Origin: a virus
Taxonomy: Duplodnaviria; Caudoviricetes
DNA: 64,000 nucleotides
IMG/VR virus record: IMGVR_UViG_3300042294_003246
Strand: one strand, 5' to 3'
Part shown: in pieces, positions 1,833 through 48,749 of the stretch
Layout of the letters: each line of letters opens with the position of its first letter
Numbering within the stretch: position 1 is the first letter of the stretch
Made by a program: the position numbers and the translations under genes
The notes under the pieces: model-generated
Seen by the model: the letters and a program-made list of their open reading frames with translations, nothing else
What the model was told of the DNA's origin: nothing
Database searches by the model: none

Positions 1833-1992
1833 TAAGTCAAAAGTTGGTTTTGCTCAATAGAGTTAAAGTAATATATTCTTATTACGTATTTCTTCGTATT
1901 TATTAGTAGTCTCGACCGGCCCATGGTAGATGGGGGTTTCCAATAGGATTCTTCAAGTGAGCGTTAAATTTACTTAAACAAGTTTGTACGCA

Positions 1993-8710: not shown

Positions 8711-9958
8711 ATGCAAAAACTATCATTTTTAGGAAACAATATTGTAGGATCTGAGATTATAAAAATTTCACAACAGATCAAAGAAGTTTCCAAATCAAAA
8801 CCTGTTGAAAATTTTAGTATCGGGGATTTCAATCCTGTAGTAAATCCGATACCCAAAAAACTCAAAAATTATATAGTTGAATCATATGAAAATGATTTGA
8901 CTAATTATCCAATGTCTTCAGGTGAATTGGATCTTAGAACATCAATAAGTAATTACTTAAGAAAAAAAAGAAAAATATCTTATGGTGAAGATGAAATTCT
9001 TGTTGGTTGCGGTGTTAGACCTTTAATTTATACCATATTCAAAAGTATTGTCGATCCTGGAGATGTCGTTATGTATCCTGTTCCGTCTTGGAACAACAAC
9101 CATTATTCTTTTTTACATAACGCAATTAAAATCCCAATAGAATGTAAACCCGAGAATTCTTTCTTTCCAACTTTTGACGATGTTAAAGATAAGTTAGTAA
9201 ACACAAGATTACTTTGTTTATGTTCACCTCAAAATCCCACAGGACGAGTTATCGATAAGGATACACTTAAGCAAATATGTGATGAAATAGTTAAAATTAA
9301 CAAAGAAAAGAGTAAAAAAACTTTTTTGTTTTTTGATCAGATTTATTCTGATTTAGTTCCTGAAGGATTATTTACACATCCTTTGGATGTTTGTCCTGAA
9401 ATTAGAGAATATTTAATTTGTGTTGACGGAATCTCAAAATCCTTGTGTGCCACAGGAGTTAGGGTGGGTTGGACATTTGGTCCAAAAAGTGTAATATCAA
9501 AAATGACTGAAATTTTTTCTCACATCGGGGCTTGGGCACCAAAACCAGAACAGATTGCCGTTGGAAAATTTTTGAATGACTACCAAGAAATTAATGATTT
9601 TATTTCTTCAAAAATAAATCAATATTCTTTTATTTCCAATCAGATTTGTGAATCTTTGGATGATTTGAAAAAATCAAGATTTAATATTGATTATCAAAAA
9701 CCAGAAGGTGGGATATACATATCAATTTATTTTGAACACGTTTCATATTTCGGTAGTGTTGAAAATTTTGTCGAATTTTTAATCAAAAGTTGTGGCGTCG
9801 GAATGGTTCCGTTTGAATATTTTGGATCAAAAGAAAATGAAGGTTGGTTTAGAATGTCTATTGGGGGGATAGACCCAAATAATATTGATAACATAAAGTC
9901 AGTTTTTAAAAAAATATGTCTAAATTCAATATCAGAAATCAATTCATGGATAGTTTAG
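8711..9958 (+). CDS. PLP-dependent aminotransferase class I/II (aspartate aminotransferase-like)
   Basis: LCSPQNPTG, FFDQIY, DGISKS..TGVRVGW (PLP lysine), WFRMS. Confidence 0.9.
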   Translation: MQKLSFLGNNIVGSEIIKISQQIKEVSKSKPVENFSIGDFNPVVNPIPKKLKNYIVESYENDLTNYPMSSGELDLRTSISNYLRKKRKISYGEDEILVGCGVRPLIYTIFKSIVDPGDVVMYPVPSWNNNHYSFLHNAIKIPIECKPENSFFPTFDDVKDKLVNTRLLCLCSPQNPTGRVIDKDTLKQICDEIVKINKEKSKKTFLFFDQIYSDLVPEGLFTHPLDVCPEIREYLICVDGISKSLCATGVRVGWTFGPKSVISKMTEIFSHIGAWAPKPEQIAVGKFLNDYQEINDFISSKINQYSFISNQICESLDDLKKSRFNIDYQKPEGGIYISIYFEHVSYFGSVENFVEFLIKSCGVGMVPFEYFGSKENEGWFRMSIGGIDPNNIDNIKSVFKKICLNSISEINSWIV

Positions 9959-9979
9959 TTTCTGAAATGCTAAAATAAA

Positions 9980-10531
9980 ATGATTAACCCAACAGGAAAA
10001 AAATTAGAGAAACTTTTATTTGGAATGTTTGACGACGCCATACAAGGTGTTGATACATATAACCATAATGGTAGTATGTGGTTGATCTTTACTGATGAAA
10101 TGAAATGGGTTGTGGAATACACTAAAGAACAAACACTATGGTATAATTACTATTTCTTCAAAAACGAAATGGAAATGATAAACTTGGATTGTGTTGATAA
10201 TAAAGACCTTATTCAAAAATGGTTTGAGTCAAGATTTTTGAATAAGAATGAGGTTAAAGAAACTGACAAATCTAATTCCAATTATCGTTTGTGTGTTAAA
10301 GACACCATTCAAAATGGTGTAAAAAACACCTGCTGGAATCGTGGAAGCAAAAACACCCGAGTTAAAGACACCATTCAAAATGGGGTAAAAAACACCCGTG
10401 GATATGTAAAACAGATTGATTCGTTGGTTAAAGACACCATTCAAAATGGGGTAAAAAACACCCAAGCCCCTTACCATTCGTTATATGAGTTAGTTAAAGA
10501 CACCATTCAAAATGGGGTGAAAGAAAAATAG
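9980..10531 (+). CDS. Hypothetical protein, conserved ~105-aa N-domain plus 22-aa VKDTIQNGVKNT repeat units
   Basis: Paralogue of 21016 and 21707. Confidence 0.8.
   Translation: MINPTGKKLEKLLFGMFDDAIQGVDTYNHNGSMWLIFTDEMKWVVEYTKEQTLWYNYYFFKNEMEMINLDCVDNKDLIQKWFESRFLNKNEVKETDKSNSNYRLCVKDTIQNGVKNTCWNRGSKNTRVKDTIQNGVKNTRGYVKQIDSLVKDTIQNGVKNTQAPYHSLYELVKDTIQNGVKEK
10295..10528. CRISPR. CRISPR-like array in frame inside ORF 9980: 4 repeats (36 nt), 3 spacers (30 nt)
   Basis: GTTAAAGACACCATTCAAAATGGGGTAAAAAACACC at 10295, 10361, 10427, 10493 (last degenerate); spacers unique, exactly 30 nt. Confidence 0.7.
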
Positions 10532-10566
10532 ATTTACAAAAAAATTATTTATATATTTGTGTTATT

Positions 10567-10980
10567 ATGAAGAAGATTTATTTAGACGATGTTAGAACGC
10601 CTGTTGATAAAGAATGGATTGTTGTTCGTTCTTACGATGAGTTCGTTGAAAAAATAAATGAGATTGGTTTGAATAATATCCAACTCATTTCGTTAGATCA
10701 CGATTTGGGTGATACCGCAATTGATGAGTGGAAAAGAAATGTTTATACAAACTACACAATTAATTACGATAACATTACCGAAAAGACCGGTATGGATTGT
10801 GTTAAATGGTTGGTTAATGAATGGATGAATGGTAAACCTGTTGTTGATGTTGTGGTTCATTCACACAACGCAATTGGAAGTGGTAATATGTGTGGTTATA
10901 TCAACAACTACAGACACATCAATCGTTTAAAACAAAATTGCATTAGACTTGAGTGGGATTATACAATAGAAAAAATATAA
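10567..10980 (+). CDS. Cyclic-phosphate processing receiver-domain protein
   Basis: IYLDDVRTP and ISLDHDLG motifs, VHSHN. Confidence 0.8.
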   Translation: MKKIYLDDVRTPVDKEWIVVRSYDEFVEKINEIGLNNIQLISLDHDLGDTAIDEWKRNVYTNYTINYDNITEKTGMDCVKWLVNEWMNGKPVVDVVVHSHNAIGSGNMCGYINNYRHINRLKQNCIRLEWDYTIEKI

Positions 10981-10983
10981 GAA

Positions 10984-11508
10984 ATGGATTTAACTAAACT
11001 AACAATGGACGAACTTATTTCTTTAAGAAATAAAATTGAAGGACTTATTCATTCATATGAGGACGGTTATATCTACATATGTTCTGTTCGTCAGTTCGGT
11101 AGTGTTTGGGAAGAAAGACCAACCAGTCTGTATTCATTAAGGGAATTGTGTGATTCTTATTACGGCGACAATGGAATTGTTGATGTTTATACCAATAATC
11201 CAAATTTGGAATTTCCTGAAATGGAGTTTTATAATTATGGTGATGTTATGTATATCAATTCAGAATATGATTACAGGGAGTGGATTAAACACACTAAGGC
11301 TAAAAATCTTATTGAAGATGTAACTGAACGACTTGATGAGTGGGACAAAAGTAAAGATAAACCATTTCAATACCGACCATCTTCCAAACCAATATGGACA
11401 AGAGAAGATGTTAGTGAATGGATTAAAGAGTTTGAAAATACCAAGTGGGATTTTGTTGAACCAAGATCTATGAAGAAAGAATATTCTGAAGAAGATAGTG
11501 ACGAATAA
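10984..11508 (+). CDS. Hypothetical protein
   Basis: 174-aa ORF. Confidence 0.7.
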   Translation: MDLTKLTMDELISLRNKIEGLIHSYEDGYIYICSVRQFGSVWEERPTSLYSLRELCDSYYGDNGIVDVYTNNPNLEFPEMEFYNYGDVMYINSEYDYREWIKHTKAKNLIEDVTERLDEWDKSKDKPFQYRPSSKPIWTREDVSEWIKEFENTKWDFVEPRSMKKEYSEEDSDE

Positions 11509-11532
11509 AAAAAATATTATTATTTTTGTAAA

Positions 11533-12660
11533 ATGGAAAATTTAAATAGTGTTGCATATGTAGGTAAAGTTGGTGTTCCAACTCAAATACCAGGTGCTGA
11601 TAATATAGAACTTGTTACGGTTAATGGTTGGATGGCCATAACCAAAAAAGGTGAATATAAAGAAGGAGACTTGGTTGTTGTTGCAACTACTGACGCTGTA
11701 ATACCACAAGAATTATCTGATAGTATGGGAGTAACTGGTTACCTTCGTAAAGGTCAACGAGTTAGAACCGTGAAACTTCGTGGAGTTTACTCTGAATGTT
11801 TAATAATACCAACTAAATACATACCCGGATATGGAGATCAATATTACGAGGGTATGGATATGATGGAAAGGTTGGGTATATTCAAATACGAACCTCCTGT
11901 TAAGATGGTTGAAATGAGTGTTGGTGGAAGAAAAATCAAATACTACCAAAATCCAAACTTCCATGTTTACTATAAGTTTCCAAATCAAAAGAATGTGCCC
12001 GATATGTTCAATGAAGAGGACGAAGTGGTTATAACAAGAAAACTTCACGGAACTAATGCTCGTTATGCGATAGTTAGGAAGAAAAAACTTTCTTTGTGGG
12101 ACCGAGTTAAAATATTCTTCGGTGATAAATGGAAGGCCTTTGATTACATCTATGGGTCTCATAATGTTGAGAAAGGATCTGACTCACAAGGGTTTTATTC
12201 TACAGATGTTTGGGATGAGGTTGCAAAAAAATACAATATCCGATCAAAACTTTGGAATCACCTAAAAGATACTTACAATCCTGAAGATTTGGAACAGGGT
12301 TTTATTATATATGGTGAAATATATGGTGCTGGCATACAAAAAAACTATGACTATGGTTTATCTGATATAAAATTTGCAGGATTTGATGTTGAGGTTGATG
12401 GAGAATACGAACCATATATGAGAGAAAAAACACACTTCGAGGTAATGGATTTACCACAAGTTGATGTGTTATATCATGGTAATTGGAATAAAGAAGAACA
12501 AGACAAATACGTCTTCAACAACTTTATTGAAGGATCTAAAGTTCCTCATGAAGGTGTTGTTGTAAAGTCAATTACCGGTGATCGTCACAAAGTGGCAAAA
12601 GTTATCAATCCTGACTATTTGATCTACGGAGAAAAAAATAATGTTGGTGACTCCCATTAA
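11533..12660 (+). CDS. RNA ligase (DRB0094/Rnl2-like family)
   Basis: N-terminal IPGADNIE...GQRVRTVKLRGVYSE OB-like region; motif I KLHGTN; IYGEIYG, FAGFDV, HEGVV, KVIN. Confidence 0.9.
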   Translation: MENLNSVAYVGKVGVPTQIPGADNIELVTVNGWMAITKKGEYKEGDLVVVATTDAVIPQELSDSMGVTGYLRKGQRVRTVKLRGVYSECLIIPTKYIPGYGDQYYEGMDMMERLGIFKYEPPVKMVEMSVGGRKIKYYQNPNFHVYYKFPNQKNVPDMFNEEDEVVITRKLHGTNARYAIVRKKKLSLWDRVKIFFGDKWKAFDYIYGSHNVEKGSDSQGFYSTDVWDEVAKKYNIRSKLWNHLKDTYNPEDLEQGFIIYGEIYGAGIQKNYDYGLSDIKFAGFDVEVDGEYEPYMREKTHFEVMDLPQVDVLYHGNWNKEEQDKYVFNNFIEGSKVPHEGVVVKSITGDRHKVAKVINPDYLIYGEKNNVGDSH

Positions 12661-12709
12661 CTTGATGGGATCACCTTTTTTACTTATCATTTAAAAAAAC
12701 AAATAAATT

Positions 12710-12976
12710 ATGCCTTACTTAAGATTACATGTAGATATTGACGAGATCTACGACGACATGGATAGAAGTGACAAAAGACAAATGGCCGAATGGTTATATG
12801 ATGATGGGACATTGGGAAAACACCCCAATCCTGATATTAGAAGACTTATAAGGGGTGAAGAAGAAACACACGGAGAAGCAGAACTTCGAGACAATCTCAC
12901 CAAACTATGGAACGGACATTTTAGACTTTCCAATGAAGACGAAGAAATTATTAAAAAAATTGCAAACAAATTGTGA
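12710..12976 (+). CDS. Hypothetical protein
   Basis: ORF. Confidence 0.65.
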   Translation: MPYLRLHVDIDEIYDDMDRSDKRQMAEWLYDDGTLGKHPNPDIRRLIRGEEETHGEAELRDNLTKLWNGHFRLSNEDEEIIKKIANKL

Positions 12977-13170
12977 TGGAAAATGAATATTTGGTTCGAT
13001 TCGCAAATGAAAGTTATTATCAAACAAGATTAAAAATTGATTCATCCAAAGTTAAAGACCCTCTCGAATTAAGAGAAGAGGTATTTTTTACTATCGATGA
13101 TGTAAGAATGTCGGTGAAAAAAGAAGATTGGAAAAAGATAATAAATAAAGAAGTTAAAAATAAAATATGA
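12973..13170 (+). CDS. Hypothetical protein
   Basis: ORF, overlaps neighbours. Confidence 0.6.
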   Translation: MMENEYLVRFANESYYQTRLKIDSSKVKDPLELREEVFFTIDDVRMSVKKEDWKKIINKEVKNKI

Positions 13171-14174
13171 TGGATAAAGAATTTGAAAAACTAATTGAAG
13201 AATTAGACAACTTAGAAATTAATGAACCCATAAGTATTATGACTAAGTATTCAGATGAACCTTCATTTGATTATAATCAAGAAGAATCTTCTATAAACAC
13301 TAACTCGGCAACTCCAACATGTTGGGGAACATTACAAGACGAAGAATTTGTTCCTGCATTTAAGTCTGTAGATAAAGTTCCTTCTGGTATTTATGAGATA
13401 GTATGGAATAGACAAGTATCTCAACACACAATAAAAAAACAACCTTTTAAAACAGATGAATTATATCAGTTACCTTCTTACGAAATTCAAGACATCCTTA
13501 AAGACATCCAAAATTTTTGGGATCGTAGAGACAAATATAGAGAGTATAACTTTGTTCATAAGCGTGGGATTCTAATGTATGGTGAACCTGGTTGTGGTAA
13601 GTCAGGTATCATCCAATTAATATCAAAACAACTAATTGAAAACGACGGGATTATTCTAAACATTAAAGATCATGACGATGTAGAATACTTTATTGACTTT
13701 ATTGCGACTTTTAGAAAGATTGAACCAAATAGACCATTAATTGTATTATTGGAAGACATTGACTCAATCGCAGGGGAAAGTAATCACTCAACAAGTAAGT
13801 TGTTGAATATATTAGACGGTGTTAAACAGATCGAAGATGTTGTATATATTGCAACAACCAACTATCCTGAGAAACTACAAGAACGTATTACAAATCGACC
13901 ATCTCGTTTTGATCGGAGATATAAAGTTGAACTTCCAAATGAAGAAATTAGAGAAGCATATATTCGTCACAAATTAAAAGATGAGGATTTGAAAAATGTA
14001 AACGTCTCTGAGTGGGTAAAAAGAACTGAAGGAATGTCTCTTTCACACTTGAAGGAAGTCGTAATTTCAACTATTGTTATGGGTAGAGAATTTGAAGAAG
14101 TTATGGATAATTTGGAAGGGTTGAAAAAAGCTCCAACAATTAAAGGATCAGGTAAAGTAGGTTTTGGGCGATGA
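13167..14174 (+). CDS. AAA+ ATPase
   Basis: Walker A GEPGCGKS, Walker B LLEDID, ATTNYPE, RPSRFDR. Confidence 0.9.
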   Translation: MMDKEFEKLIEELDNLEINEPISIMTKYSDEPSFDYNQEESSINTNSATPTCWGTLQDEEFVPAFKSVDKVPSGIYEIVWNRQVSQHTIKKQPFKTDELYQLPSYEIQDILKDIQNFWDRRDKYREYNFVHKRGILMYGEPGCGKSGIIQLISKQLIENDGIILNIKDHDDVEYFIDFIATFRKIEPNRPLIVLLEDIDSIAGESNHSTSKLLNILDGVKQIEDVVYIATTNYPEKLQERITNRPSRFDRRYKVELPNEEIREAYIRHKLKDEDLKNVNVSEWVKRTEGMSLSHLKEVVISTIVMGREFEEVMDNLEGLKKAPTIKGSGKVGFGR

Positions 14175-14479
14175 AAAGATTAATTTTGTATTCACCTTTA
14201 ATCATTATGATGTTATTTAATGTTTTTGCAAGTTTATACTCCAAAAATTTAACATCTTTTTTAATATCAATAATACTAATAGTATTTTTTTACTTTTTTT
14301 ATACAAAAAACACAAACAAATGAAAATAGAACACGACGGAGATATTTATGAAACGGTAATAACTAAACCAATTTTGGAAGGTGATTACTATTACGATTGT
14401 ATGACCCATGAAGTCAAAAAATGTAAAACCTACATTTGTTTTGATCCATGGTCACTAAAAATGGAAATAATAAAAGAAC

Positions 14480-14710
14480 ATGAAACTACAGATGAATAAA
14501 AATCGAACCATTTATTTAACCATCAAATTAATTTTGATTATGGTTTATGTAACTCTAACAAGTTGTAAATCAAGTAAATCAGGATGTGATGCTTATGGAA
14601 CAAACTACGAACTAAAAACCGATTCAACAATCGTTAAATTCCAACATTGTCATATTCCAAAGGAAAATTATTGTTATTACACAACCGATACAATTTATCT
14701 AAAAAAGTAA
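14480..14710 (+). CDS. Small putative lipoprotein
   Basis: Hydrophobic leader with lipobox LTSC followed by KSSKSGCDAYG. Confidence 0.55.
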   Translation: MKLQMNKNRTIYLTIKLILIMVYVTLTSCKSSKSGCDAYGTNYELKTDSTIVKFQHCHIPKENYCYYTTDTIYLKK

Positions 14711-14753
14711 TACAAGACTTTTTTATCTCACTTTTAATGATTACTTTTGTATC

Positions 14754-15146
14754 ATGGAAAAAATACTATACATAATTAGAGGATGCCCAAATTCTGGCAA
14801 ATCGACTTTGGCAAAACAATTGACGGCAAACGTATTCGAAGCCGATCATTATTTTTATGATAATGATGGTAATTATAATTTTGTTCCTTCAGAAATAAAA
14901 GAGGCTCATAAAGAATGTCAAGAGTTTGTTAAACATGCGATGACATCGGGTATTAAAAAAATTGCGGTGTCCAATACCTTCACACAAGAGTGGGAAATGA
15001 AACCATACTTTGAACTTGCAAAAGAACATGGATATATGGTCTTCAGTATTATAGTAGAAAATCGTCACGGAAATACCAACCAACACGGAGTTCCTGATGA
15101 TAAAATAGAACAAATGAAAAATCGATTCCAAATTAAATTAGTATGA
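14754..15146 (+). CDS. P-loop kinase (AAA_33/polynucleotide-kinase-like)
   Basis: IRGCPNSGKST, EADHYF, VSNTFT, HGVP. Confidence 0.85.
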   Translation: MEKILYIIRGCPNSGKSTLAKQLTANVFEADHYFYDNDGNYNFVPSEIKEAHKECQEFVKHAMTSGIKKIAVSNTFTQEWEMKPYFELAKEHGYMVFSIIVENRHGNTNQHGVPDDKIEQMKNRFQIKLV

Positions 15147-15796
15147 AGTTTGATGATATATTAGTAACAGGTAAAGTTTGGGTTACCTCAGATATTCACT
15201 ACAGCCACAAAAATATTTGTCGAGGTGTAACAAATTGGAGAACTCAAGACGGACAAATCCCAATCAATTCTACGAGGGATTTTCAAACAATAGACGAAAT
15301 GAATGACGTGTTGGTAAATAACATCAATTCAAAAGTCGGACAAGATGATACATTAATAATGTTGGGAGATATTGTTTTTGGTGGATTTGAAAATGTTAGG
15401 AAGTTTTTAGATCGTTTAGTTTGTGAAAATATTCATCTTGTTTTAGGAAATCACGATCACCACATACGAAACAATCGAGAAAATATTCGAGAAAGTTTCA
15501 GTAGTGTATCTGATTACTTACAAGTTAAAATCTACGGACAAAACTTTGTGATGTGTCACTATCCCTTCTCAAGTTGGAACGAATTAAATAAAGGATCAAT
15601 TCACTTACACGGACACGTTCATTTGTCTAATAAAGATAAGTGGGGTCGAGGTAAACGACTTGATGTTGGTGTTGATGGAAATAATTATCACCCATATAGT
15701 TTAAGTGAGATTGTGCATATGATGGATCGAAGATCAATTAGTTCTGAATTAGATGTTGATCACCATTTGGATGATTTAGTTGGAGTTGTTGGATAA
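15143..15796 (+). CDS. Calcineurin-like metallophosphoesterase
   Basis: SDIHYSH, LGD, LGNHD, CHYP, HGHVH, DVGVD. Confidence 0.9.
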   Translation: MKFDDILVTGKVWVTSDIHYSHKNICRGVTNWRTQDGQIPINSTRDFQTIDEMNDVLVNNINSKVGQDDTLIMLGDIVFGGFENVRKFLDRLVCENIHLVLGNHDHHIRNNRENIRESFSSVSDYLQVKIYGQNFVMCHYPFSSWNELNKGSIHLHGHVHLSNKDKWGRGKRLDVGVDGNNYHPYSLSEIVHMMDRRSISSELDVDHHLDDLVGVVG

Positions 15797-15872
15797 TTTT
15801 TTTTTCAAAAAGTTTGGTGAATTAATTTTTATCACTATCTTTGTAGTGTAATCATTTAAACACACCATCACT

Positions 15873-16601
15873 ATGTCAACTTTAACTCTCGTCCAAAATT
15901 ATCAAGGTTCTAACTCTTTCGTCCTTAAAATGAAAGATGTAATTTCTAAATATGGCAAACTAACTGTAAGTCAAGCGGCTACTGTTGAAAAGATCTTAAA
16001 TGCTCCTGTTGAAGCAAAACAGGTTGAGTTGACTGAGGACATGAAAAAAATTCAAGCCTACACTGGTGAGAATTCTTTCGTGAAAGATATCCAGTCTAAA
16101 CTTGAGAAATATGGTAAGTTGTCTGATAAACAAGTGTCAGCGGCTTTGAACCAAATTCAAAAAGAGGAAAATAAAGCGGCTACCAAGAAAATGAATATCC
16201 CCGCTGAGGGAGATACAATTCAAGTTGGTCGAAAAATCGGTCAACAAATGAAAGAGACTTATGGTCTTCAGTTTAATCCTACAATTTTGGATATCACTAA
16301 AGTTTTAGGAATTTCACCTAAAGCCGTTAAGTTCGCAGGTAAGATGACTGTGAAGAGAGCAAAAGTTTGTGTGTGTTGTGCAAAGACTTTGACTGACGAG
16401 TTTTCAATGTTGACTACGATGGGTAAGACATGTGCTAAACACATGGGTGTTGAATACATCAAAGACAAGAGTCAGGCGGATCGTTTCCGTGAGGACTACC
16501 TAAAACGAGTAGAAGAGATCGGTGTGATGGAATTTTGGGTTCCTAAGTCACAACTTAAGAACTGGGAAGGTGACACCAACTTCTTACTTGAAATTTTATA
16601 A
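15873..16601 (+). CDS. Hypothetical protein with DUF6011-like Zn motif
   Basis: CVCCAKTLTD..S....MGKTCAKH; TATCTTTG promoter at 15836-15843. Confidence 0.65.
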   Translation: MSTLTLVQNYQGSNSFVLKMKDVISKYGKLTVSQAATVEKILNAPVEAKQVELTEDMKKIQAYTGENSFVKDIQSKLEKYGKLSDKQVSAALNQIQKEENKAATKKMNIPAEGDTIQVGRKIGQQMKETYGLQFNPTILDITKVLGISPKAVKFAGKMTVKRAKVCVCCAKTLTDEFSMLTTMGKTCAKHMGVEYIKDKSQADRFREDYLKRVEEIGVMEFWVPKSQLKNWEGDTNFLLEIL

Positions 16602-16603
16602 TT

Positions 16604-16628
16604 AAATCCCCACTTTAATGTGGGGTTT
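16604..16628 (+). terminator. Intrinsic terminator
   Basis: AAATCCCCAC-TTTAAT-GTGGGGTTT hairpin after stop. Confidence 0.7.
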
Positions 16629-16642
16629 TATATTTATATCAT

Positions 16643-17161
16643 ATGAAAAGACTAATAGAAAGAGTTATTAAACAATATTTGTTTGAAATCAGAAAATTCC
16701 CAAAACAAAAAGGAACTAAGGTTTACAATGATATGATGTATAAAATAATATCAACATATCATCAATGGTTTGATAGACATGGTGACAATACTTATGATGA
16801 GAATTATGATTTGTTTTTTGAAAAAAATCTCTCAGATGATGGTTACAGAGTTGGTGTTCCTGATGAAATATTGGTTCCTATAATACAGAATAAAATAGAA
16901 AAAATTATTGAGAGTTTTAAAATTCACAATCCATGTAATAAAAGAATTATTTTTACTAAAGTAAGAAACGATAATCAAGATGAAGAATATTTTGATTTTG
17001 TTGAATTTGTGATTCAAAAAGATGATAATGAGTTAAAAATTATAAGTTCGGCATTTTCGGAGGACGGTAACTTTTTATATTTTGGAGTAAAACCAAGAAG
17101 TAAAAAAGAAAATTTAAAAGAAAATTCATGTAAAAGTGGTGAAATAGTTGTGCAGTTGTAA
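16643..17161 (+). CDS. Hypothetical protein
   Basis: ORF preceded by TATTTAT motif. Confidence 0.7.
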   Translation: MKRLIERVIKQYLFEIRKFPKQKGTKVYNDMMYKIISTYHQWFDRHGDNTYDENYDLFFEKNLSDDGYRVGVPDEILVPIIQNKIEKIIESFKIHNPCNKRIIFTKVRNDNQDEEYFDFVEFVIQKDDNELKIISSAFSEDGNFLYFGVKPRSKKENLKENSCKSGEIVVQL

Positions 17162-17169
17162 AAAATCAC

Positions 17170-17177
17170 TATCTTTG
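17170..17177 (+). promoter_or_regulatory. Bacteroidota-type -7 promoter element TATCTTTG with no ORF downstream
   Basis: Matches TAnnTTTG; same motif precedes ORFs at 7712, 15873, 30476, 55298. Confidence 0.6.
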
Positions 17178-17184
17178 TTTAAGA

Positions 17185-17400
17185 ATTGATTGTTATTGGT
17201 TCAATCATTAAAAAATACCAATCGTAGGGTGTCTGGCGTAATCCGACACAGGTTGAAAATCCCACCCCTAGGTAAAATTATCCCCATCTTAATGGTGGGG
17301 ATTTTATTTTAAGAGACCCCATCCTTAGTGGTGGGCTTTTAGGACCGTTATCCGTTAGGGTAACAATTAAAAGGGGGAATTCGCTACTCCCCCTTTTTTT
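17185..17400 (+). ncRNA. Candidate structured non-coding RNA(s)
   Basis: GC-rich stems in an ORF-free gap, promoter upstream, hairpin plus U-tract at 17369-17400. Confidence 0.35.
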
Positions 17401-17423
17401 ATTTAACAAAGTATTTATCTTAT

Positions 17424-17870
17424 ATGAAAATAATAATAACAGAAAGTCAGTATAATCTTTTATTTGAAAATAAAAAAAATCAATCTTTAATTGATATTAT
17501 TAAAGAAGAAGGTTGGGAATCTGCCGCTGAATTAGTTGGAGGTATTGAGAATCTTAAAAAATTGACAGGAATTGAAACTCCTATAGATTTTTTAAATATT
17601 TTTACTGATTTGGATGTTGTTCAGAGTGAAGAAGAACCTAATTGGACTTTATTTAGGTATGAAAAAAAAAATAATGTAATGATTTACGATAGAAAAAATA
17701 ACAATGTTTATATATATTATGATGTTATTTGGCCATTTTTAGAAGAAGGTTTTGATCTTAAAAACTCTGAAATACAACAACTTACAGAAGAGTGGTTGTC
17801 TGAGGCTTACAATTTGAGGGGAGTAACAACTTATCCATCTATAATGGGTCGGCACTCATTAGTTGTCTGA
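17424..17870 (+). CDS. MKIIITE-leader hypothetical protein ending in a CRISPR-like unit
   Basis: Paralogue of 47879. Confidence 0.75.
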   Translation: MKIIITESQYNLLFENKKNQSLIDIIKEEGWESAAELVGGIENLKKLTGIETPIDFLNIFTDLDVVQSEEEPNWTLFRYEKKNNVMIYDRKNNNVYIYYDVIWPFLEEGFDLKNSEIQQLTEEWLSEAYNLRGVTTYPSIMGRHSLVV

Positions 17871-17880
17871 GGCTTACAAT
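17795..17880. CRISPR. Mini-array: 36-nt type VI-B-like repeat, 31-nt spacer, 19-nt partial repeat
   Basis: GTTGTCTGAGGCTTACAATTTGAGGGGAGTAACAAC (17795-17830); exact copy of first 19 nt at 17862-17880. Confidence 0.65.
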
Positions 17881-18009
17881 CTATAATGAAATAGTTATAC
17901 TTTCTTTTCTATTTTATATAAACCACTATAATTTGATTATGGTTGGTATTTTATTTACATTTGCAGTATTAGTAATTGGTGTTTTAGGAAAACACAGAAA
18001 ATTTTTAAA

Positions 18010-18645
18010 ATGAAAGTTATATTCTTGGATATTGATGGAGTTATGAACTCTAATGTTTTTTATAAAGAAAGACATAGAAGACGATGGAGAAAACCTATCA
18101 CATGGTGGTATGAATTAAAGCGATTGGTTAGAAAATTGTTTAGAATTAAATCAAAAGGAGTTTCTTTGGCGGATTATAAACCACCTAAAAAGTCTTTCAC
18201 TTTTGAATATCAATTCAAGGATTTACGAGAAGAAACTTGTGATCAAAAGTGGAAATGGTTGAGCGAATGGTGTAATAAAACTAACACAAAAATTTGTGTT
18301 TCTTCGAGTTGGAAACATCACTTTCGTATTGAGGATCATATATCAACACCTTATAGATGGGAAGACGCATTTGTTAAACTTGGATTTAAACCAGGAACTT
18401 ATGTAGGAATCACTGGTAATAGAAGAACTTTACGAGGTGAAGAAATTAAAGAGTGGTTGGATCAACACCCTGAAGTTGATGATTACGCAATATTAGACGA
18501 TGATTCAGATATGTTGACAGAACAATTTTCAAAGTTCCATCACTGTGACACTTGGTTTGGTTTATCCCCAAACCACTTGTATAGAATTGGAAGACAATTT
18601 GAAAACAAAAGTAATTACGAAAGATTAACACAAACAATAAGATAA
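18010..18645 (+). CDS. HAD-superfamily (Swiss Army Knife RNA-repair-like) protein
   Basis: IFLDIDGV, VSSSW, RGEEIKEWL, YAILDDDSDM. Confidence 0.85.
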   Translation: MKVIFLDIDGVMNSNVFYKERHRRRWRKPITWWYELKRLVRKLFRIKSKGVSLADYKPPKKSFTFEYQFKDLREETCDQKWKWLSEWCNKTNTKICVSSSWKHHFRIEDHISTPYRWEDAFVKLGFKPGTYVGITGNRRTLRGEEIKEWLDQHPEVDDYAILDDDSDMLTEQFSKFHHCDTWFGLSPNHLYRIGRQFENKSNYERLTQTIR

Positions 18646-19232
18646 TGAAAGTTATATTCTTAGATCATGATAGTGTAATTTGTCTCTCTAATAATTGGGG
18701 TAGTCGTTACAAAAAACAACACAAATGGGGAGGAAGAAAATTATCCATGACCCCAAGAGAAATTCCGGTGCAATATCGTTTTGATGACTTTGATAAAGGG
18801 ACAATTAAAGTTCTAAATGAGATCATTGAAGAAACTGGATGTGAAATAGTGGTAAGTTCTGATTGGAGATTACATGCAACACTTGATGAACTTGGTGATT
18901 ACTATATTAGTCAAGGTATTATTAAACGACCAATTGCGGTGACTGACATATTTAGAGACCTTTTTCCAAAAGAATGGAATGCGTTTAGATTTCGTGCTGA
19001 GTTGGAATTAGAACGAAGTATGGAGATCGGACATTGGTTAAAGAATCATCCTGAAGTCACACATTGGGTTGCGATTGATGATCTTAATATGAGTCTTGAG
19101 TTTTTATCAAAATACTTCTTGGATAGTGAGGATAAAAACCCTGGTCTAACTAATTTTGTTTTAACACCAAGATCAAGAGAAGGTATTAAACAAAGTGGGA
19201 TTAAAGAAAAGGTTATTAATTTTTTAAAATGA
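18645..19232 (+). CDS. HAD-superfamily protein, paralogue of 6249
   Basis: IFLDHDSV (G to S), VVSSDWR, VAIDD. Confidence 0.8.
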   Translation: MKVIFLDHDSVICLSNNWGSRYKKQHKWGGRKLSMTPREIPVQYRFDDFDKGTIKVLNEIIEETGCEIVVSSDWRLHATLDELGDYYISQGIIKRPIAVTDIFRDLFPKEWNAFRFRAELELERSMEIGHWLKNHPEVTHWVAIDDLNMSLEFLSKYFLDSEDKNPGLTNFVLTPRSREGIKQSGIKEKVINFLK

Positions 19233-19322
19233 AAAGAACAATTCAAAAGATTCTTCTTTGGTGGTCGTTTAGATTTCCAAAGAAAAAACGAAAATCAATT
19301 TGGAATCTTTAAATTATATTAT

Positions 19323-19709
19323 ATGACAGATAAAGAAATGAATGAGTTTTTGGAATCCATTGGAGGATTAGAAAATGGATTTTACAATGATAGACCACCA
19401 ATTAAAGACTCCGGATTCTTTGATGTTGGTTCTGGTTGGTATTCACTAATTAAGGATCTTATAATTGATCTTATTGAGTTAGGATGGGATAAACAAACTT
19501 GTCAGGTGAAGGAAAAGTTTGGTGGATTAAGATTTTATATTAACGGGGCATCAAACGAGGTTCATAAAAGAATAAGTCGGGCGGAAAATCTAAGTTATGA
19601 AACTTGTGAGAAATGTGGCGAAAAAGGAGAATTAAGAACAAATATTGGTTGGCATACCACATTATGCGATAAACATTATGAAGAACATAAATCAAATATT
19701 CAAAGGTAA
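19323..19709 (+). CDS. Conserved phage hypothetical, paralogue of 7014
   Basis: QVKEKFGGLRFY. Confidence 0.75.
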   Translation: MTDKEMNEFLESIGGLENGFYNDRPPIKDSGFFDVGSGWYSLIKDLIIDLIELGWDKQTCQVKEKFGGLRFYINGASNEVHKRISRAENLSYETCEKCGEKGELRTNIGWHTTLCDKHYEEHKSNIQR

Positions 19710-19989
19710 TGAACATTTAATGGATTTGGCACCTATTGAGGAGTTAATCGACTATTGTGTTGAGTTGGAAGGTCAGGTGCTTGAAAAAAAAATAGATGAT
19801 ACTTATAGTAAAGAAGAAATTTATTTACAGATACTAAAAGACATCTATGATAGTTGTATCAATACTTTGACCGATGATGAGTTGGCTCAAACATTTGAAG
19901 AACTACCAAAAACAGATTTTAAACAATCTGTAATAAATTTAAAAAAATACATGGAGGCCGTATCAGAATTATACGGTATTAGATTATGA
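19645..19989 (+). CDS. Hypothetical protein, paralogue of 7357
   Basis: ELIDYCVELEG; real start probably the later MKNINQ. Confidence 0.65.
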   Translation: MVGIPHYAINIMKNINQIFKGNEHLMDLAPIEELIDYCVELEGQVLEKKIDDTYSKEEIYLQILKDIYDSCINTLTDDELAQTFEELPKTDFKQSVINLKKYMEAVSELYGIRL

Positions 19990-20303
19990 GTGAAACAACA
20001 AAACAAAAAGTAAAAATGATTATGGTCCAAGAAAAACCATATATCGTATCGTTAGAGAAAATCGAAATCGGTGATAATGTTATAGTTACAGTTGCAGGTC
20101 AACACGGATCACTTATAAAATGTGAAAACGAGACAATTTATAATTTGGTCACACAAAATAAACTTTCTTCAAATCAGGCGTATAAGGTCTTCATGGAACC
20201 AGAAAACATTAAATTTCAAGCAGATCAAATTGAAAAGATCTTGGAAAATGATGGGTTAATGGACGTTGAGTTTGAGAATGGAGTATATAAATACAGCATA
20301 TGA
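19986..20303 (+). CDS. Hypothetical protein
   Basis: ORF; its 3' end recurs as a fragment at about 29335-29408. Confidence 0.7.
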   Translation: MSETTKQKVKMIMVQEKPYIVSLEKIEIGDNVIVTVAGQHGSLIKCENETIYNLVTQNKLSSNQAYKVFMEPENIKFQADQIEKILENDGLMDVEFENGVYKYSI

Positions 20304-20409
20304 CAAACGTTTTAGAAACTTATGTTCATCTATATGGAATATTATTTGTAATCAACATAATCGGGTTTTATTTACTCTATAGATATTTTAAGAAAAGAAA
20401 AAAGAAATA

Positions 20410-20625
20410 ATGGCTTATATTGAACACAACTTCTTTCCCTTAAAAGTTTGGGTTAGAAATGAATACATGTATCAACATAAAAAAGGACTTGGTGAATTGA
20501 CACCAGGAGTTATAATCTCTGTTAGATGCATGCCAGGTCAAGCGGCACTATTTCAGGTGTTATTGGAAAATGGTGTTTTAAGAGACAAACTCCCAAGTCA
20601 TGCTTTATGGTTAAGATCAAGATAA
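20410..20625 (+). pseudogene. Truncated copy of the 29512 gene
   Basis: Matches the first ~66 aa of ORF 29512 up to KLPSHAL, then diverges and stops. Confidence 0.75.
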
Positions 20626-20696
20626 ATTTATTTTGAACGAAAAGTTTAGTATAAATACCTATTGTCTGAACTTTAAAAAAATCTTATATTTGTATT

Positions 20697-21014
20697 ATGG
20701 AAAAAGTTATTATTGAAAAAGATAAATTACGCAAATGTGTGATCTTGGAAAAAGATGGTGAATATGTATTTCGTTCAGGACATGGAGAGTTCCACGAAGA
20801 TGTTGCAAATAGATCCAAAGAACTTGAACCAGAATTAAAGGATTGGAGAATTCTTGGTGGTGGAAGAGTTAGATGGTCTGATCTTGGAATTAGAGTATAT
20901 GGACGATCAATTGATTATGGTTATATGGATAAAGAGATCGTGGAAGAACTTGTTTCAGAGTTCGCAAAAGAAAATGGTGTTGAATTTACTAACGATACAG
21001 GAATAGGATATTAA
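20697..21014 (+). CDS. Janus/Ocnus family (PHPT1-like phosphohistidine phosphatase) protein
   Basis: EFHEDV, ILGGGRV, IRVYGRSIDYG match the PHPT1 pattern EYHADI / LGGGRI / IHVYGYSMAYG as recalled. Confidence 0.65.
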   Translation: MEKVIIEKDKLRKCVILEKDGEYVFRSGHGEFHEDVANRSKELEPELKDWRILGGGRVRWSDLGIRVYGRSIDYGYMDKEIVEELVSEFAKENGVEFTNDTGIGY

Positions 21015-21015
21015 A

Positions 21016-21585
21016 ATGAAAAATCCATCAGGAAAAAAATTAGATAAGATTTTGTTCAAACTATTTGACCAAATGATTGAAGGTGTTGACCAATACAATC
21101 ATAGTGGTAGTTTATGGATCATCTTTACCAATGAACGACAATGGGTTGTTGAATATACCGAAGGAGGAACTCTATGGTATAACTACAAACTATTCAAAAA
21201 TGAAATGGAATTGGTTGGTATGGATTGCGTTGAAAATAAAGAATACATAACCAGATGGTTTGAATATAGATTTTTGAATAAACCAAAGGTTGATAAAACT
21301 TGGGACAATCCGGTAGATGTGTGGTATCAAATTGAAGACACCATTCAAAATGGGGTGAAGAACACCAAGGTTAGGTCCGCATTGCGCAGGATATCAGTTG
21401 AAGATACCATTCAAAATGGGGTGAAACACACCGGCGGAAAATTGGCTTCGCTGGCCGACCTGGTTGAAGACACCATTCAAAACGGGGTAAAGGAGACCCA
21501 AGAGTGGCGTTTGGATGCGACTCATTATATTATAGACACAATTGAAAATGGAGTGAAACAAACAAAACGAAGTTATGATGGTTAA
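21016..21585 (+). CDS. Paralogue of 9980 with in-frame repeat-spacer units
   Basis: MKNPSGKKL N-domain plus xEDTIQNGVK units. Confidence 0.8.
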   Translation: MKNPSGKKLDKILFKLFDQMIEGVDQYNHSGSLWIIFTNERQWVVEYTEGGTLWYNYKLFKNEMELVGMDCVENKEYITRWFEYRFLNKPKVDKTWDNPVDVWYQIEDTIQNGVKNTKVRSALRRISVEDTIQNGVKHTGGKLASLADLVEDTIQNGVKETQEWRLDATHYIIDTIENGVKQTKRSYDG

Positions 21586-21702
21586 AGAAAACAGAGAACG
21601 AAATATGTCGTTGAAAATGGGGTGAAACACACTACAGGAACATCAACTGACTTACGATATAAAAGGGTTGAATATACCATTCAAAACGGAGAAAAAATTA
21701 AA
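21331..21702. CRISPR. CRISPR-like array: repeats at 21331, 21397, 21463, 21529 and degenerate 21598, 21667
   Basis: 36-nt repeats; spacers 30,30,30,33,33 nt; first three spacers 47-63% GC; array continues past the ORF stop. Confidence 0.7.
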
Positions 21703-21706
21703 TAAA

Positions 21707-22897
21707 ATGAATAATCCATCAGGAAAAAAATTAGAGAAACTTGTCTTTGGGTTGTTTGACCAAATGATTGAAGGTGCAGACAAGTATATTACAGAACAAG
21801 GTTCAACTTGGTTGATCTTTACCGAAGACAAAAGATGGGTGGTTGAATTCACAAAAGATAAAACTTTGTGGTTCAACTATAACCTATTTCAAAATGAGTT
21901 AGATCTAGTCAGTAAGGACTGCACTCAAGAAAGAGATTTGATCAAGAACTGGTTTGAATCAAGATTTTTGGGTATTGATGTGGTTGAGGAAAGTTTAAGC
22001 ACTGCTGGAAAACCATTGAAGGTTAAAGATACCATTCAAAATGGGGTGAAACACACTTGGGATTTAAATGCGGATGAAATTTCTGCAGTTAAAGACACCA
22101 TTCAAAATGGGGTAAGACACACCGATTATTTTGAATATACTAATAATACCTTAGTTGAAGATACCATTCAAGAGGGGGTGAAAGAAACCAATTACAAAAT
22201 TGGTTACCGAAAAGGTGGTATTGAAATCGCAATTCAAAATGGTGTAAAAGAAACACGAACATTCAATTCACCACCAATTAAATACATTGAAGACACCATT
22301 CAAAATGGGGTGAAAGAAACAACACCTAGTGGTTATTTGGGTTCAATGGAGATGAAAGGGAAAATAGTTCATCAAATTGAATCTCCAAAACAAAATAATG
22401 AGGTTGAAGACACCATTCAAAATGGGGTAAGACACACCGAAGTAGATGGGATGAGGATAAGGAGTGGGGTTAAGGACGCCATTCAAAATGGAGTAAAGGA
22501 CACTGTGTTAGCAAAAACGGATAGATTAGTCGGTATTGAAGACACCATTCAAAGTGGTATTAAAGACGTATCTGATAGACCATTCACATTTGGATCAAGT
22601 ATTGATGATGCCATTGAAAATGGTGTTAAAGAAACTAGAGAGGTAACATTCTTGAACCAAATGTTTATTGAAGAAACAATTGAAAAAGTTACACCAGATG
22701 GTGGAGTTGAAATTCCTTCTGATATGAAAGTTGGAACTGGATTGATGAATATGGTAAAAGAATTACGTGATAATGAATGGAGAACATTTGAACATCACGA
22801 TAATTGGATTAAAAACGAACATTATCCAAATCCAACATTTGAACAACAATTTGATACAGGTAATGCTTATAAAGAAATGTTAAAAACTAAAATTTAA
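21707..22897 (+). CDS. Paralogue of 9980 with ~10 repeat units and unrelated C-terminal tail
   Basis: Start placed at ATG 21707 (MNNPSGKK) by paralogy. Confidence 0.8.
   Translation: MNNPSGKKLEKLVFGLFDQMIEGADKYITEQGSTWLIFTEDKRWVVEFTKDKTLWFNYNLFQNELDLVSKDCTQERDLIKNWFESRFLGIDVVEESLSTAGKPLKVKDTIQNGVKHTWDLNADEISAVKDTIQNGVRHTDYFEYTNNTLVEDTIQEGVKETNYKIGYRKGGIEIAIQNGVKETRTFNSPPIKYIEDTIQNGVKETTPSGYLGSMEMKGKIVHQIESPKQNNEVEDTIQNGVRHTEVDGMRIRSGVKDAIQNGVKDTVLAKTDRLVGIEDTIQSGIKDVSDRPFTFGSSIDDAIENGVKETREVTFLNQMFIEETIEKVTPDGGVEIPSDMKVGTGLMNMVKELRDNEWRTFEHHDNWIKNEHYPNPTFEQQFDTGNAYKEMLKTKI
22022..22702. CRISPR. CRISPR-like array: repeats at 22022, 22088, 22154, 22220, 22286, 22403, 22469, 22535, 22601, 22667
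   Basis: Eight 30-nt spacers and one 81-nt; repeats degenerate toward the right. Confidence 0.65.
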
Positions 22898-43306: not shown

Positions 43307-43819
43307 ATGAATAAGTTTGATTTAACCGAAAAATTGAAAGAAGAATTAAAAAAAAGAAATCTTTGGGAACAAGAAGATGATGAAGATAATGATGATAATG
43401 AGTCTGATGATAATCAAGATGACGAAGATTCAGACGAAGATTCAGAAAATCATAACGAAGATTTCTGTGAAATGGTTTGTCAGTTATTACACTCACAAAC
43501 ACAAATTCATATTTTCCATTTAGGGACCAAATCATATGCCGAACATAAAGCATTACAGGGTTATTACGAAGGTATTGATGCTTTAACTGATGGTCTAATT
43601 GAATCTTATCAGGGTAAATATGGTCTTTTAACAAATTACAAATCATATAAGAATCAATCATACAAAAACAAAAACCAAGTATTAAAATATTTTACAAGTT
43701 TATTAAATATGATTGAAGAAAAAAGAGAATCGGTTGAGGACTCTTACATCCAAAACCAAATTGATACGGTTCAAGAATTGATTTATTCAACAATGTATAA
43801 GTTGAAATTTCTTAACTAA
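43307..43819 (+). CDS. Ferritin-like DUF5856 protein with acidic N-terminal linker
   Basis: Q.HIFH..T.SYAEHKAL..YY....L.D.L.ESYQG.YG. Confidence 0.75.
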   Translation: MNKFDLTEKLKEELKKRNLWEQEDDEDNDDNESDDNQDDEDSDEDSENHNEDFCEMVCQLLHSQTQIHIFHLGTKSYAEHKALQGYYEGIDALTDGLIESYQGKYGLLTNYKSYKNQSYKNKNQVLKYFTSLLNMIEEKRESVEDSYIQNQIDTVQELIYSTMYKLKFLN

Positions 43820-44634
43820 TCTATTTCGTAAATATTATTTATTACATTCAGAGGATCTCCTTCACAATCACCTTCATAATTTCGGCATAGTTGGTCGACT
43901 TCAATCTTGTCGTCAACCTCACTGATATCAAGTAATATTGGTTCTGAATGATATATCATATTAACTTGATCATCGTTCAAGAATGTATCTACAGGTAATG
44001 ATTTAAGTTCAGGGTTCAAACCAAAAAAATCAATTTCATCTTCTGTATAGTATTCATCACTTGATTCATAGTCACCATTTCCATCACAATAATCACAATC
44101 AACTTGTCCATAACCATCACATCTATCACAGCCAAATTCACCTTTACCATCACACCAAGAACATTCAATTTCACCATTTCCTTGACAATCTGAACATGGT
44201 TCACCATCTACTTCACCAGATCCATCACAGTTTCTACATTCTTCAGTTCCATTTCCTGAACATCTATCACAATCTACATCACCACTACCATCACATGTGC
44301 TACAATATTCAGTTCCTGATCCATCACATTCATGACAAGTTATATCACGATAACCCAAATCTCTATAATGATACATTCCGATGTTTATAAGATTACCACG
44401 AACTTTAGAAAAAGAAGATTCAATATCTTTAGTTCGTGAAAAGAAGTAAACCATAAACGCGATCTCTACTTTTTCTATTCTTTTAACATTCTTCAAAAGA
44501 AGTTTCAATAGTTCATCACTATTGATATGACTCATAATTTGTTGAACATTCATATCATTATCACCATGTTCATCAACTAAATGATTATAAACTTGTTTTG
44601 TGAATACTTTATATTTTGAAGGTTGTAAGGACAT
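43816..44634 (-). CDS. Protein with DnaJ-type CxxCxGxG zinc-finger repeats
   Basis: Eight tandem CxxCxG[N/S/K/Y]G motifs; no J-domain HPD. Confidence 0.75.
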   Translation of the reverse strand: MSLQPSKYKVFTKQVYNHLVDEHGDNDMNVQQIMSHINSDELLKLLLKNVKRIEKVEIAFMVYFFSRTKDIESSFSKVRGNLINIGMYHYRDLGYRDITCHECDGSGTEYCSTCDGSGDVDCDRCSGNGTEECRNCDGSGEVDGEPCSDCQGNGEIECSWCDGKGEFGCDRCDGYGQVDCDYCDGNGDYESSDEYYTEDEIDFFGLNPELKSLPVDTFLNDDQVNMIYHSEPILLDISEVDDKIEVDQLCRNYEGDCEGDPLNVINNIYEID

Positions 44635-47496: not shown

Positions 47497-47879
47497 AAAT
47501 AATAATTTCAGAACGACAACAAAAGTTATTAACCGAGTCAAAAAAACTTGAGTCGGCACAAAATCTTATTGATCAGGCATTTGAGGAATTAAGAGAAAAC
47601 TGTGAAAAAAATTGGGTTGAACAATATGCTTGTGATCAAATGGAAACCGTTGAAGAGATTAAAGTTGTTGCATCTGAAAAAGGATCAGCGACCACAAGAG
47701 GTCAAAAAACTAATTTTTGGTTGATTGAAGTTGACATATATTATTCATCATTAGGATATACACCTTTTGAAGATTTTATTTATCAAATCCAATGGGAAGT
47801 TAGAGAAATTGTCGGATCAAGAAATATTATTATAACCATCCGAGGTACTATAAACTCAAACAAAGACCTAAACTGGTAA
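47493..47879 (+). CDS. MKIIISE-leader hypothetical protein
   Basis: ORF. Confidence 0.7.
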   Translation: MKIIISERQQKLLTESKKLESAQNLIDQAFEELRENCEKNWVEQYACDQMETVEEIKVVASEKGSATTRGQKTNFWLIEVDIYYSSLGYTPFEDFIYQIQWEVREIVGSRNIIITIRGTINSNKDLNW

Positions 47880-48322
47880 TGAAAATAATAATATCAGAAT
47901 CACAATATAATTTACTTTTAGAATCAAAGTTGAAACAAAATCTTAAACAGGAAATTAAAGATTTTGGAGTAAAAGATACTGCTGAACTTGTTAATGGTTT
48001 CGATAATTTAATGGAAATTTTAAACATAAATTCTCCGATGGATTTTTTACATTTGTTTGATGACTTGGATGTTGTTCAAAGTGAAATGGACCCTGATTGG
48101 ACTTTATTTCGATATAAACCAAAACATAATTTGATGGTTCACAATAGAAAAAATAGAACTGTTTTCATTAATTACGAAGAAATTTGGAAACCTTTATTTG
48201 ATACTGGTCTTTTCGATCCTGACATAAAGGAACTTACAAAAGAGTGGTTGTCTAGTGTCTACAACTTAAGGGGAGTCACAACCGAAAGGTTTTATCAAGC
48301 TTCTCCATGGTTAGTTGTCTAG
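47879..48322 (+). CDS. MKIIISE-leader protein, paralogue of 17424, ending in a CRISPR-like unit
   Basis: Shared FLHLF.DLDVVQSE..WTLFRY...WLS..YNLRGVTT. Confidence 0.75.
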   Translation: MKIIISESQYNLLLESKLKQNLKQEIKDFGVKDTAELVNGFDNLMEILNINSPMDFLHLFDDLDVVQSEMDPDWTLFRYKPKHNLMVHNRKNRTVFINYEEIWKPLFDTGLFDPDIKELTKEWLSSVYNLRGVTTERFYQASPWLVV

Positions 48323-48333
48323 TGTCTACAATT
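48247..48333. CRISPR. Mini-array: 36-nt repeat, 31-nt spacer, ~19-nt partial repeat
   Basis: GTTGTCTAGTGTCTACAACTTAAGGGGAGTCACAAC (48247-48282); first 18 nt recur at 48314. Confidence 0.6.
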
Positions 48334-48347
48334 TAAAAAAATAGAAT

Positions 48348-48749
48348 ATGAAAATAATAATTACAGAATCACAAGTTAGTCTTCTCAAAGAAAATTCCAT
48401 TGTGGATATGGATCTTCAACAACTATATGACAGGGCCATAAAATTAAAAAAAGTGGTTTCTAAAAATGTCCAAAGAGAGTTGGAAGATTATTCTTGGTTT
48501 GATGGATTACAGGTAAGTATTGATAGAGATTGGGGAGGACTACCTTATTATTTTTTTAACATAAAAACAAATTTGTCCCTAACAGAGGATGAATTTTATA
48601 GTCAAGAATTAGGTGATGAAATTTATGATAAAATTGGTGATGTTTTTGGTCACTTTTTTCCAGAGGTTAATAAAAATACACAATATAACTTAACTGGTGT
48701 TTGGGATGCTTCTATAACAGACAGACATGGTTATGTAACTCACATTTAG
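48348..48749 (+). CDS. MKIIITE-leader hypothetical protein
   Basis: ORF. Confidence 0.7.
   Translation: MKIIITESQVSLLKENSIVDMDLQQLYDRAIKLKKVVSKNVQRELEDYSWFDGLQVSIDRDWGGLPYYFFNIKTNLSLTEDEFYSQELGDEIYDKIGDVFGHFFPEVNKNTQYNLTGVWDASITDRHGYVTHI

Follow-up and report, generated by a model that had tools for sequence, protein, structure and literature searches.

The window analysed here (64,000 nt of DNA from the Caudoviricetes virus record IMGVR_UViG_3300042294_003246) carries in its ORF list, on the + strand at 47879..48322, a gene for a 147-aa protein, of which residues 1-134 represent a conserved phage protein family and the last 13 are the translation of a spacer and of an out-of-frame half repeat. 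The last 12 conserved codons of this gene double as a full 36-nt repeat (48247..48282, + strand; GTTGT...CACAAC), which is read in frame as L-S-S-V-Y-N-L-R-G-V-T-T. The repeat is followed, on the same strand, by a unique 31-nt spacer (48283..48313) that stems from a bacterial recA, its + strand letters being antisense to the recA mRNA, and by a terminal partial copy (48314..48336) that corresponds to the first 23 nt of the repeat, is identical to it at 22/23 positions (18 nt exact) and supplies the TAG. The locus (48247-48336) hence consists of one full and one partial repeat. As their start-to-start spacing of 67 nt shifts the frame, the partial copy is read GTT GTC TAG and closes the ORF (stop at 48320-48322).

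A paralogous gene (17424..17870, + strand; 55% identical protein) bears a mini-array of its own at 17795..17880 (+ strand), in which a repeat (17795-17830) and a 31-nt spacer (17831-17861) are followed by a half repeat (17862-17880) that is a 19/19 copy, with a spacing likewise of 67 nt. The preliminary description had reported the same layout of 36-nt repeat, 31-nt insert and half repeat at both loci, and we confirmed it, the period being 67 nt in either case. The half copy that it placed at 48314 is indeed there, though it extends to 23 nt and not to 18. Its statement that each half copy matches the repeat of its own gene held as well, by way of a variable block (AGTGTC vs GAGGCT) that is present in both copies of each locus. 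The inserts of the two paralogues are unrelated, as had been described, so homology between inserts offers no ground for rejecting the claim. Exact GTTGTCT-N6-TACAA sites occur four times in the window, and these are both copies at both paralogues (in the shuffle control, the mean was 0.6 matches at <=1 mismatch).

We found no terminator from the gene through the array to the gene that follows, and since none separates them the array at 48247 is probably co-transcribed with the gene cluster as part of an operon transcript. Positions 48348-48535, within the gene just 3' of the array, are matched with full identity by a 188-nt freshwater metatranscriptome contig, which hints that the cluster is expressed (DNA carry-over being possible). 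No RNA contig over the array itself was present among the Logan contigs. Neither the repeat nor the whole unit showed a stable fold beyond that of shuffled sequences (z 0.3-1.1), no hairpin being predicted, and Rfam returned no gathering-score match in the window, the signal around the array being noise only.

The array gene had no homologue in GenBank phages and its protein matched no Pfam family; it has 453 relatives, none of them named. Its AF2 model is of high quality (pLDDT 90.5), and a fold search of the model against the PDB and the AFDB clusters gave no informative match. A scan of IMG/VR with the repeat core recovered 47 loci of 1-6 units each, with periods of 64-69 nt. Each of these arrays starts in frame where the gene for a homologue of one ~135-aa protein ends, and as their periods are mostly not multiples of 3, units past the first run out of frame. 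Within an array the repeats are near-identical and the inserts unrelated. The constancy of insert length that the preliminary description had led one to look for was borne out: the 76 distinct inserts measure 27-33 nt except for one of 23 and one of 41, the great majority being of 31 nt (29), 30 nt (23), 29 nt (8) or 32 nt (7), with few of 27, 28 and 33.

The contents of the arrays vary between close relatives. We counted 60 different spacer-encoded tails in 107 proteins closely homologous to that of the window, and a close relative of the 17795 locus (L040) shares its repeat and downstream flank and carries five and three spacers. The recA spacer, in turn, persists in homologues that are 84-100% identical, where it shows point variants. 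One homologue (L005) ends in a single diverged repeat copy and has no array, and a query made of the gene end and array of L026 matched the genome G402 at about 10 or more sites. The locus at 48247 and its relatives are real CRISPR-type arrays, in that they show 36-nt direct repeats with unique spacers, a protospacer and polar growth.

The growth is seen on an ENA scaffold (L193) with a gene 100% identical to that of the window, where the order is full repeat, new 29-nt insert, second identical full repeat, the window's 31-nt spacer and half repeat. In comparison with the window, one spacer and one whole 36-nt repeat have been added on the gene side of the locus, and this gene-side gain is the signature of CRISPR adaptation. 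The sole difference between L017 and L012/L053 is, again, the gene-proximal spacer. The separate integration events that had been postulated for the two paralogues are thus borne out between loci and also between strains, given the one spacer and one full repeat gained by L193. The accompanying idea, integration with target duplication, stands for the whole 36-nt repeat and falls for the half copy as a duplicated product. The half repeat is an old, conserved array end and not an integration product; it is retained in orthologues that have other spacers, and it forms the array end in L001, L193 and L194.

The co-variation of the half copy with the repeat of its own gene would be accounted for by recombination between repeats in which the half copy takes part. 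We infer this to be the cause of the match, so that the concerted conversion offered earlier as the other explanation survives in this form, with the qualification that one terminal copy in L002/L003 differs from the repeat to which it belongs. No array-length variants were found among the contigs of four runs (contigs drop rare variants). A truncated end is also found in the Cas13b array of genome G034 (L069, about 10260-10620), which closes with a spacer and the first 20 nt of the repeat. In the same array one repeat is split after nt 20 by an insert, which gives a full-spacer-half layout as in the phage.

A protospacer search, also suggested in the preliminary description, was successful and identified a bacterial recA as the source of the spacer. 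Its 22-nt core led to one JGI metagenome contig (L188), to which the whole spacer (48283-48313) aligns at 29/31 positions, within the 5' part of recA and antisense to the mRNA. The same recA is present on contigs of 12-15 kb amid housekeeping genes, and the context (GAPDH, PGK and AccD genes) is chromosomal. When the gene was traced through genomes, G502 gave the best match (77% identity) among those sampled from the phylum, and among 164 genomes of the genus of G502 one, G1010, carries a recA 98% identical to that of L188; the spacer itself aligns to G1010 at 28/31 positions (in a search with E 6e-8). At <=3 mismatches, a sample of 251 Bacteroidota genomes contained no match to the recA spacer.

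The window locus was detected in at least 14 lake-water metagenomes, spanning 2016 to 2024. In three runs (X9, X10 and X18; two lake DNA runs and one freshwater metatranscriptome in which part of the stretch is present), separate contigs align to the window over 48285-48317 alone and have recA-like flanks beyond. As these recA-flanked contigs come from runs that bear the phage, the bacterium with the protospacer lives alongside it, and this co-occurring bacterium is probably the host. The GC content of the spacers (37%) is higher than that of the phage (30.5%; p about 1e-9), which speaks for a foreign origin.

A second spacer was traced to the same genome. When the window region 9900-22200 was compared with G1010, the best match was 10331-10361 (E 0.002), which is the first spacer of an array of a sister kind (10331-10360; type B, see below) plus one base. 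The alignment (27/30) ends at the spacer borders and lies, in sense orientation, in a LemA-like gene. A single bacterial genome of 2.3 Mb is thus matched by two spacers of the same phage. In L193, the newly gained spacer (958-986) has a weak, suggestive match in G1010 (C10, about 80734-80764; 26/31, E 0.017), in a gene for an SprB-like repeat protein, and may represent a third host protospacer. The known protospacers accordingly number two, perhaps three, and their orientations are mixed.

The other ~20 spacers of the region 9900-22200 had no match in G1010. No protospacers of the 76 type-A spacers (those of the 48247 kind) or of 408 type-B spacers were found in 1.6 Mb of related phage loci, and an exact core scan of IMG/VR with four spacers recovered no viral protospacer. 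The GenBank phages contained no protospacer for the arrays of L040 or L026, and the array of L026 matched five large phage contigs by its repeats only. The array on L056 (a 1.8-kb phage-like contig in a Flavobacterium bin) found no protospacer in its own bin (G001). Comparison of the L040 arrays with G1010 and four congeners gave matches that fall outside the spacers, and these were discarded.

The sister arrays (type B) lie at 10295-10528, at 21334-21705 and at about 22020-22700, the last inside the ORF 21668..22897. Their 36-nt repeat encodes VKDTIQNGVKNT (V-K-D-T-I-Q-N-G-V-K-N-T), and the N-terminal domain of the type-B proteins aligns with that of the type-A family. At 117 IMG/VR loci, all 366 distinct type-B inserts (366/366) are multiples of 3 nt, 30 nt accounting for 89%, and none of them (0/366) contains an in-frame stop, while 36% and 60% have stops in the other two forward frames. 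Multiples of three free of stops imply that type-B inserts are translated. The insert at 10331-10360 is host DNA read in a frame other than that of the host LemA-like gene, and one of its three differences from G1010 changes TGA to GGA and removes the would-be stop in the phage frame. The type-A inserts of in-frame length (30, 33 and 27 nt) resemble the type-B length distribution. These observations fit one DNA-level generator for both kinds of array, with frame selection solely where the array is translated.

We looked for the machinery that could have written the arrays. A complete related phage of 296 kb and four partial ones yielded no Cas1 and no Cas13b, and none of the large ORFs of the window had a Cas-like or integrase-like match. 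On the bacterial side, G1010, which of all genomes comes closest to the source of the spacer, lacks Cas1, and 9/164 genomes of the putative host genus possess it; Cas13b was found in 0/164 of them by the same model that does detect it in G034. The Cas1 locus of G982, a member of the genus, consists of cas9-cas1-cas2 and then a type II-C array in which 47-nt repeats alternate with spacers of 29-31 nt, a spacer length like that of the phage arrays. The window repeat agrees with this 47-nt repeat at 12/18 positions over the first 18 nt and at 13/18 over the last 18 nt, and the total of 25/36 (p 1e-4) is reached in the orientation of the phage gene only. By this alignment, the phage repeat looks like the II-C repeat of the host genus minus its central 11 nt.

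A likeness to Cas13b repeats was also noted. In Flavobacteriaceae, arrays with GTTG...ACAAC repeats of 36 nt and spacers of 30 nt adjoin cas13b (in one case cas9-cas1). The commonest repeat of the phage family matches two Cas13b repeats at 23/36 positions (shuffle p about 0.001), and the two repeats of the window match two genuine ones at 20-24/36. We tried to derive the orientation of the repeat from this likeness and abandoned it as not decisive, both strands scoring 19-24/36. A search for the repeat core in 185,579 species genomes found no bacterial array, the sole true match being the phage-like contig L056.

In Flavobacterium columnare, a II-C Cas1 feeds a VI-B array with 36-nt repeats in trans, and the VI-B array gained many host-derived spacers; moreover, VI-B and II-C repeats share end motifs, the II-C repeat being about 11 bp longer in most species (PMC8092290). 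This published in-trans adaptation from II-C to VI-B, together with the likeness of the repeat ends, makes a host II-C adaptation module the likeliest candidate for the writer of the phage arrays. Since the II-C repeat of the genus measures 47 nt, a ruler that copies 36 nt must be assumed.

We thus favour, with a probability of roughly 0.55, the reading that the locus at 48247 is a genuine CRISPR-type repeat-spacer unit at the 3' end of a multi-copy jumbo-phage gene and that its writer is a host Cas1-Cas2. New units, each made of a full repeat and a foreign fragment of ~30 nt, would be added on the gene-proximal side by a host-supplied Cas1-Cas2 integrase, most likely that of a II-C module acting in trans on a VI-B-like 36-nt repeat, and the integrated fragments would be host DNA freed during infection. 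Recombination between repeats would delete units and shrink the arrays, and the terminal half copy, by joining in it, would have its likeness to the repeat of its own gene refreshed. The array would be transcribed with the gene cluster. Given that a Cas13b guide needs a full 3' repeat and that an array of one spacer has its only full repeat on the upstream side, the recA spacer would not be such a guide, and we take it to be a passenger and not an active guide. A possible benefit to the phage is that of a repeat mimic acting as a decoy, whether of host CRISPR proteins or of the integrase; that the host genus lacks Cas13b weakens the case for this role. Indeed, a genus in which Cas1 is rare and Cas13b missing is hard to square both with high spacer turnover and with a role as Cas13b decoy.

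Rare Cas1 in the genus together with this high turnover leaves real room for a phage-encoded writer. Such an enzyme, an integrase outside the Pfam Cas1 family, would insert host DNA fragments beside the 36-nt repeat, from which the phage may gain variable tails or cassettes, or RNAs against host genes. The scarcity of Cas1 and the missing Cas13b favour it, as do the very high turnover in many arrays per genome, the tie of the layout to one protein superfamily across diverse phages and the 366 translated type-B inserts, all stop-free multiples of three. No candidate enzyme came forward, however: the complete relative is devoid of Cas1 and the large ORFs of the window lack an integrase-like match, while the repeat ends, in resembling the II-C repeat of the host genus and Cas13b repeats, point to host machinery. 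Furthermore, metagenome assemblies often lose CRISPR loci, and the host Cas1 may be under-counted. We consider a phage-encoded writer of this kind rather improbable. A wider formulation, which we advance tentatively as somewhat easier to entertain, is that this freshwater jumbo-phage family owns, or has fully co-opted, a spacer writer that places 30-nt pieces of host chromosome next to a coding 36-nt repeat, yielding untranslated arrays and variable protein tails in type A and translated 10-residue cassettes in type B. If true, CRISPR-adaptation chemistry would be writing into phage genes, and not for immunity.

In place of a passenger, the recA spacer could be a working guide, the RNA made in gene direction being antisense to the host recA mRNA and directing Cas13b, Cas9 or a phage protein to silence or cut recA, which would cripple repair and SOS. 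Its antisense orientation and its retention, with point variants, in homologues of 84-100% identity agree with such a function; recA transcripts with the target occur in the lake metatranscriptome, and no spacer matches the relatives of the phage, as expected if self-targeting were purged. Against it, the spacer is followed by 23 nt of repeat where Cas13b needs the full 3' repeat, none of the 164 genomes of the putative host genus encodes Cas13b, and the second mapped spacer is in sense orientation in the unrelated LemA-like gene. Target recognition by Cas13 is accompanied by collateral cleavage, so activated Cas13b would also damage phage transcripts, and the Cas9 route would need a tracrRNA to pair with repeats that differ between the paralogues. 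A working guide is thus unlikely in our opinion. That nothing was inserted at all, the gene end being repetitive at the protein level, locally duplicated in tandem or repeated by chance, is hardly credible. It is true that the repeat is coding and conserved as protein, that L005 ends in a single copy and that the sister type-B arrays are translated repeat proteins; but most type-A periods (64-69 nt) are not divisible by 3, the later units run out of frame, identical repeats alternate with unrelated inserts, one of which matches a bacterial recA, and L193 differs from the window by exactly one repeat and one spacer.

The favoured reading, a CRISPR-type unit written by a host Cas1-Cas2, calls for comparison with the described systems. 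In its way of working, the locus corresponds to CRISPR adaptation into an array of VI-B type. With VI-B (Cas13b) arrays the phage arrays share the 36-nt repeat (GTTG...CACAAC), spacers of ~30 nt and gain on the leader side; with those VI-B arrays that are served by II-C in trans (PMC8092290) they share the many spacers from the host chromosome and the fact that cas1 and cas2 do not adjoin the array; and with the Cas13b array of G034, the truncated terminal repeat. Unlike VI-B arrays, they reside in a phage, in many copies per genome, and their 'leader' is a protein-coding gene whose last 12 codons are the repeat. The identity to VI-B repeats is limited to 20-24/36, no hairpin is predicted and the spacer lengths are looser (29-32 nt; 31 here). 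The effector was found neither in the phage relatives nor in the putative host genus, and 3' of the spacer the repeat extends for only 23 nt; it is on the effector and on the 3' repeat that membership in VI-B fails.

Viral mini-arrays carry repeats identical to those of the host and spacers aimed at related viruses (PMC11656645). The phage locus is like these mini-arrays and the single repeat units or RNA anti-CRISPRs (PMC11656645) in being Cas-less, in having one or few spacers and in its presumed reliance on host CRISPR proteins. It differs from them in that no identical host repeat was found (the best repeat in the host genus reaching 25/36), in that the mapped spacers are bacterial chromosomal, with no viral match for four, and in that the repeat is coding. 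With neither an identical host repeat nor viral targets found, the locus falls outside the group of viral mini-arrays described so far.

Ectopic 'neo-CRISPR' loci arise when Cas1-Cas2 integrates spacers at sites that resemble a leader-repeat junction, with a target duplication of repeat length. The phage arrays have in common with them the insertion of spacers and the repeat-length duplication outside a canonical CRISPR locus; unlike them, the phage site is conserved, is reused in nature and is inherited across a large phage gene family. In the literature we found no paper on arrays in which the coding end of a phage gene serves as the repeat. What sets the locus apart from known viral mini-arrays is a repeat within the coding sequence of a phage protein, arrays behind many paralogous genes per genome and traced spacers from the chromosome of a co-occurring, probably host, bacterium. 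The arrays constitute a natural system for asking whether, in the course of infection, phage genomes are written into by CRISPR integrases, whether arrays serve phages as decoy, guide or source of protein variation and whether a non-Cas1 writer exists. The traced spacers, moreover, directly connect an uncultured lake jumbo phage with its probable host.

Several features of the neighbourhood were also recorded. The array gene (47879-47925) and its paralogue (17424-17470) share an N-terminal MKII(I/S/T)ExQ..LL.E leader with the ORFs at 46936, 47493, 48348 and 48765, and the small ORFs that share it form a tandem run and are otherwise unrelated. We take this leader to resemble the capsid-targeting leaders of the T4 internal proteins, in which case the array gene would presumably encode an injected head protein. 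The product of 1984-6024 is a protein of 1346 aa that contains a CHU_C-associated Ig-like domain and weakly matches the type IX secretion sorting tail (23.7 bits, below the Pfam cut-off of 27), which would fit a Bacteroidota host. Finally, a 66-nt tandem repeat of 1.9 copies (44190-44316) lies within a CxxC-rich ORF on the minus strand (43816..44634); this is a protein repeat of the ordinary sort and has no relation to the arrays.
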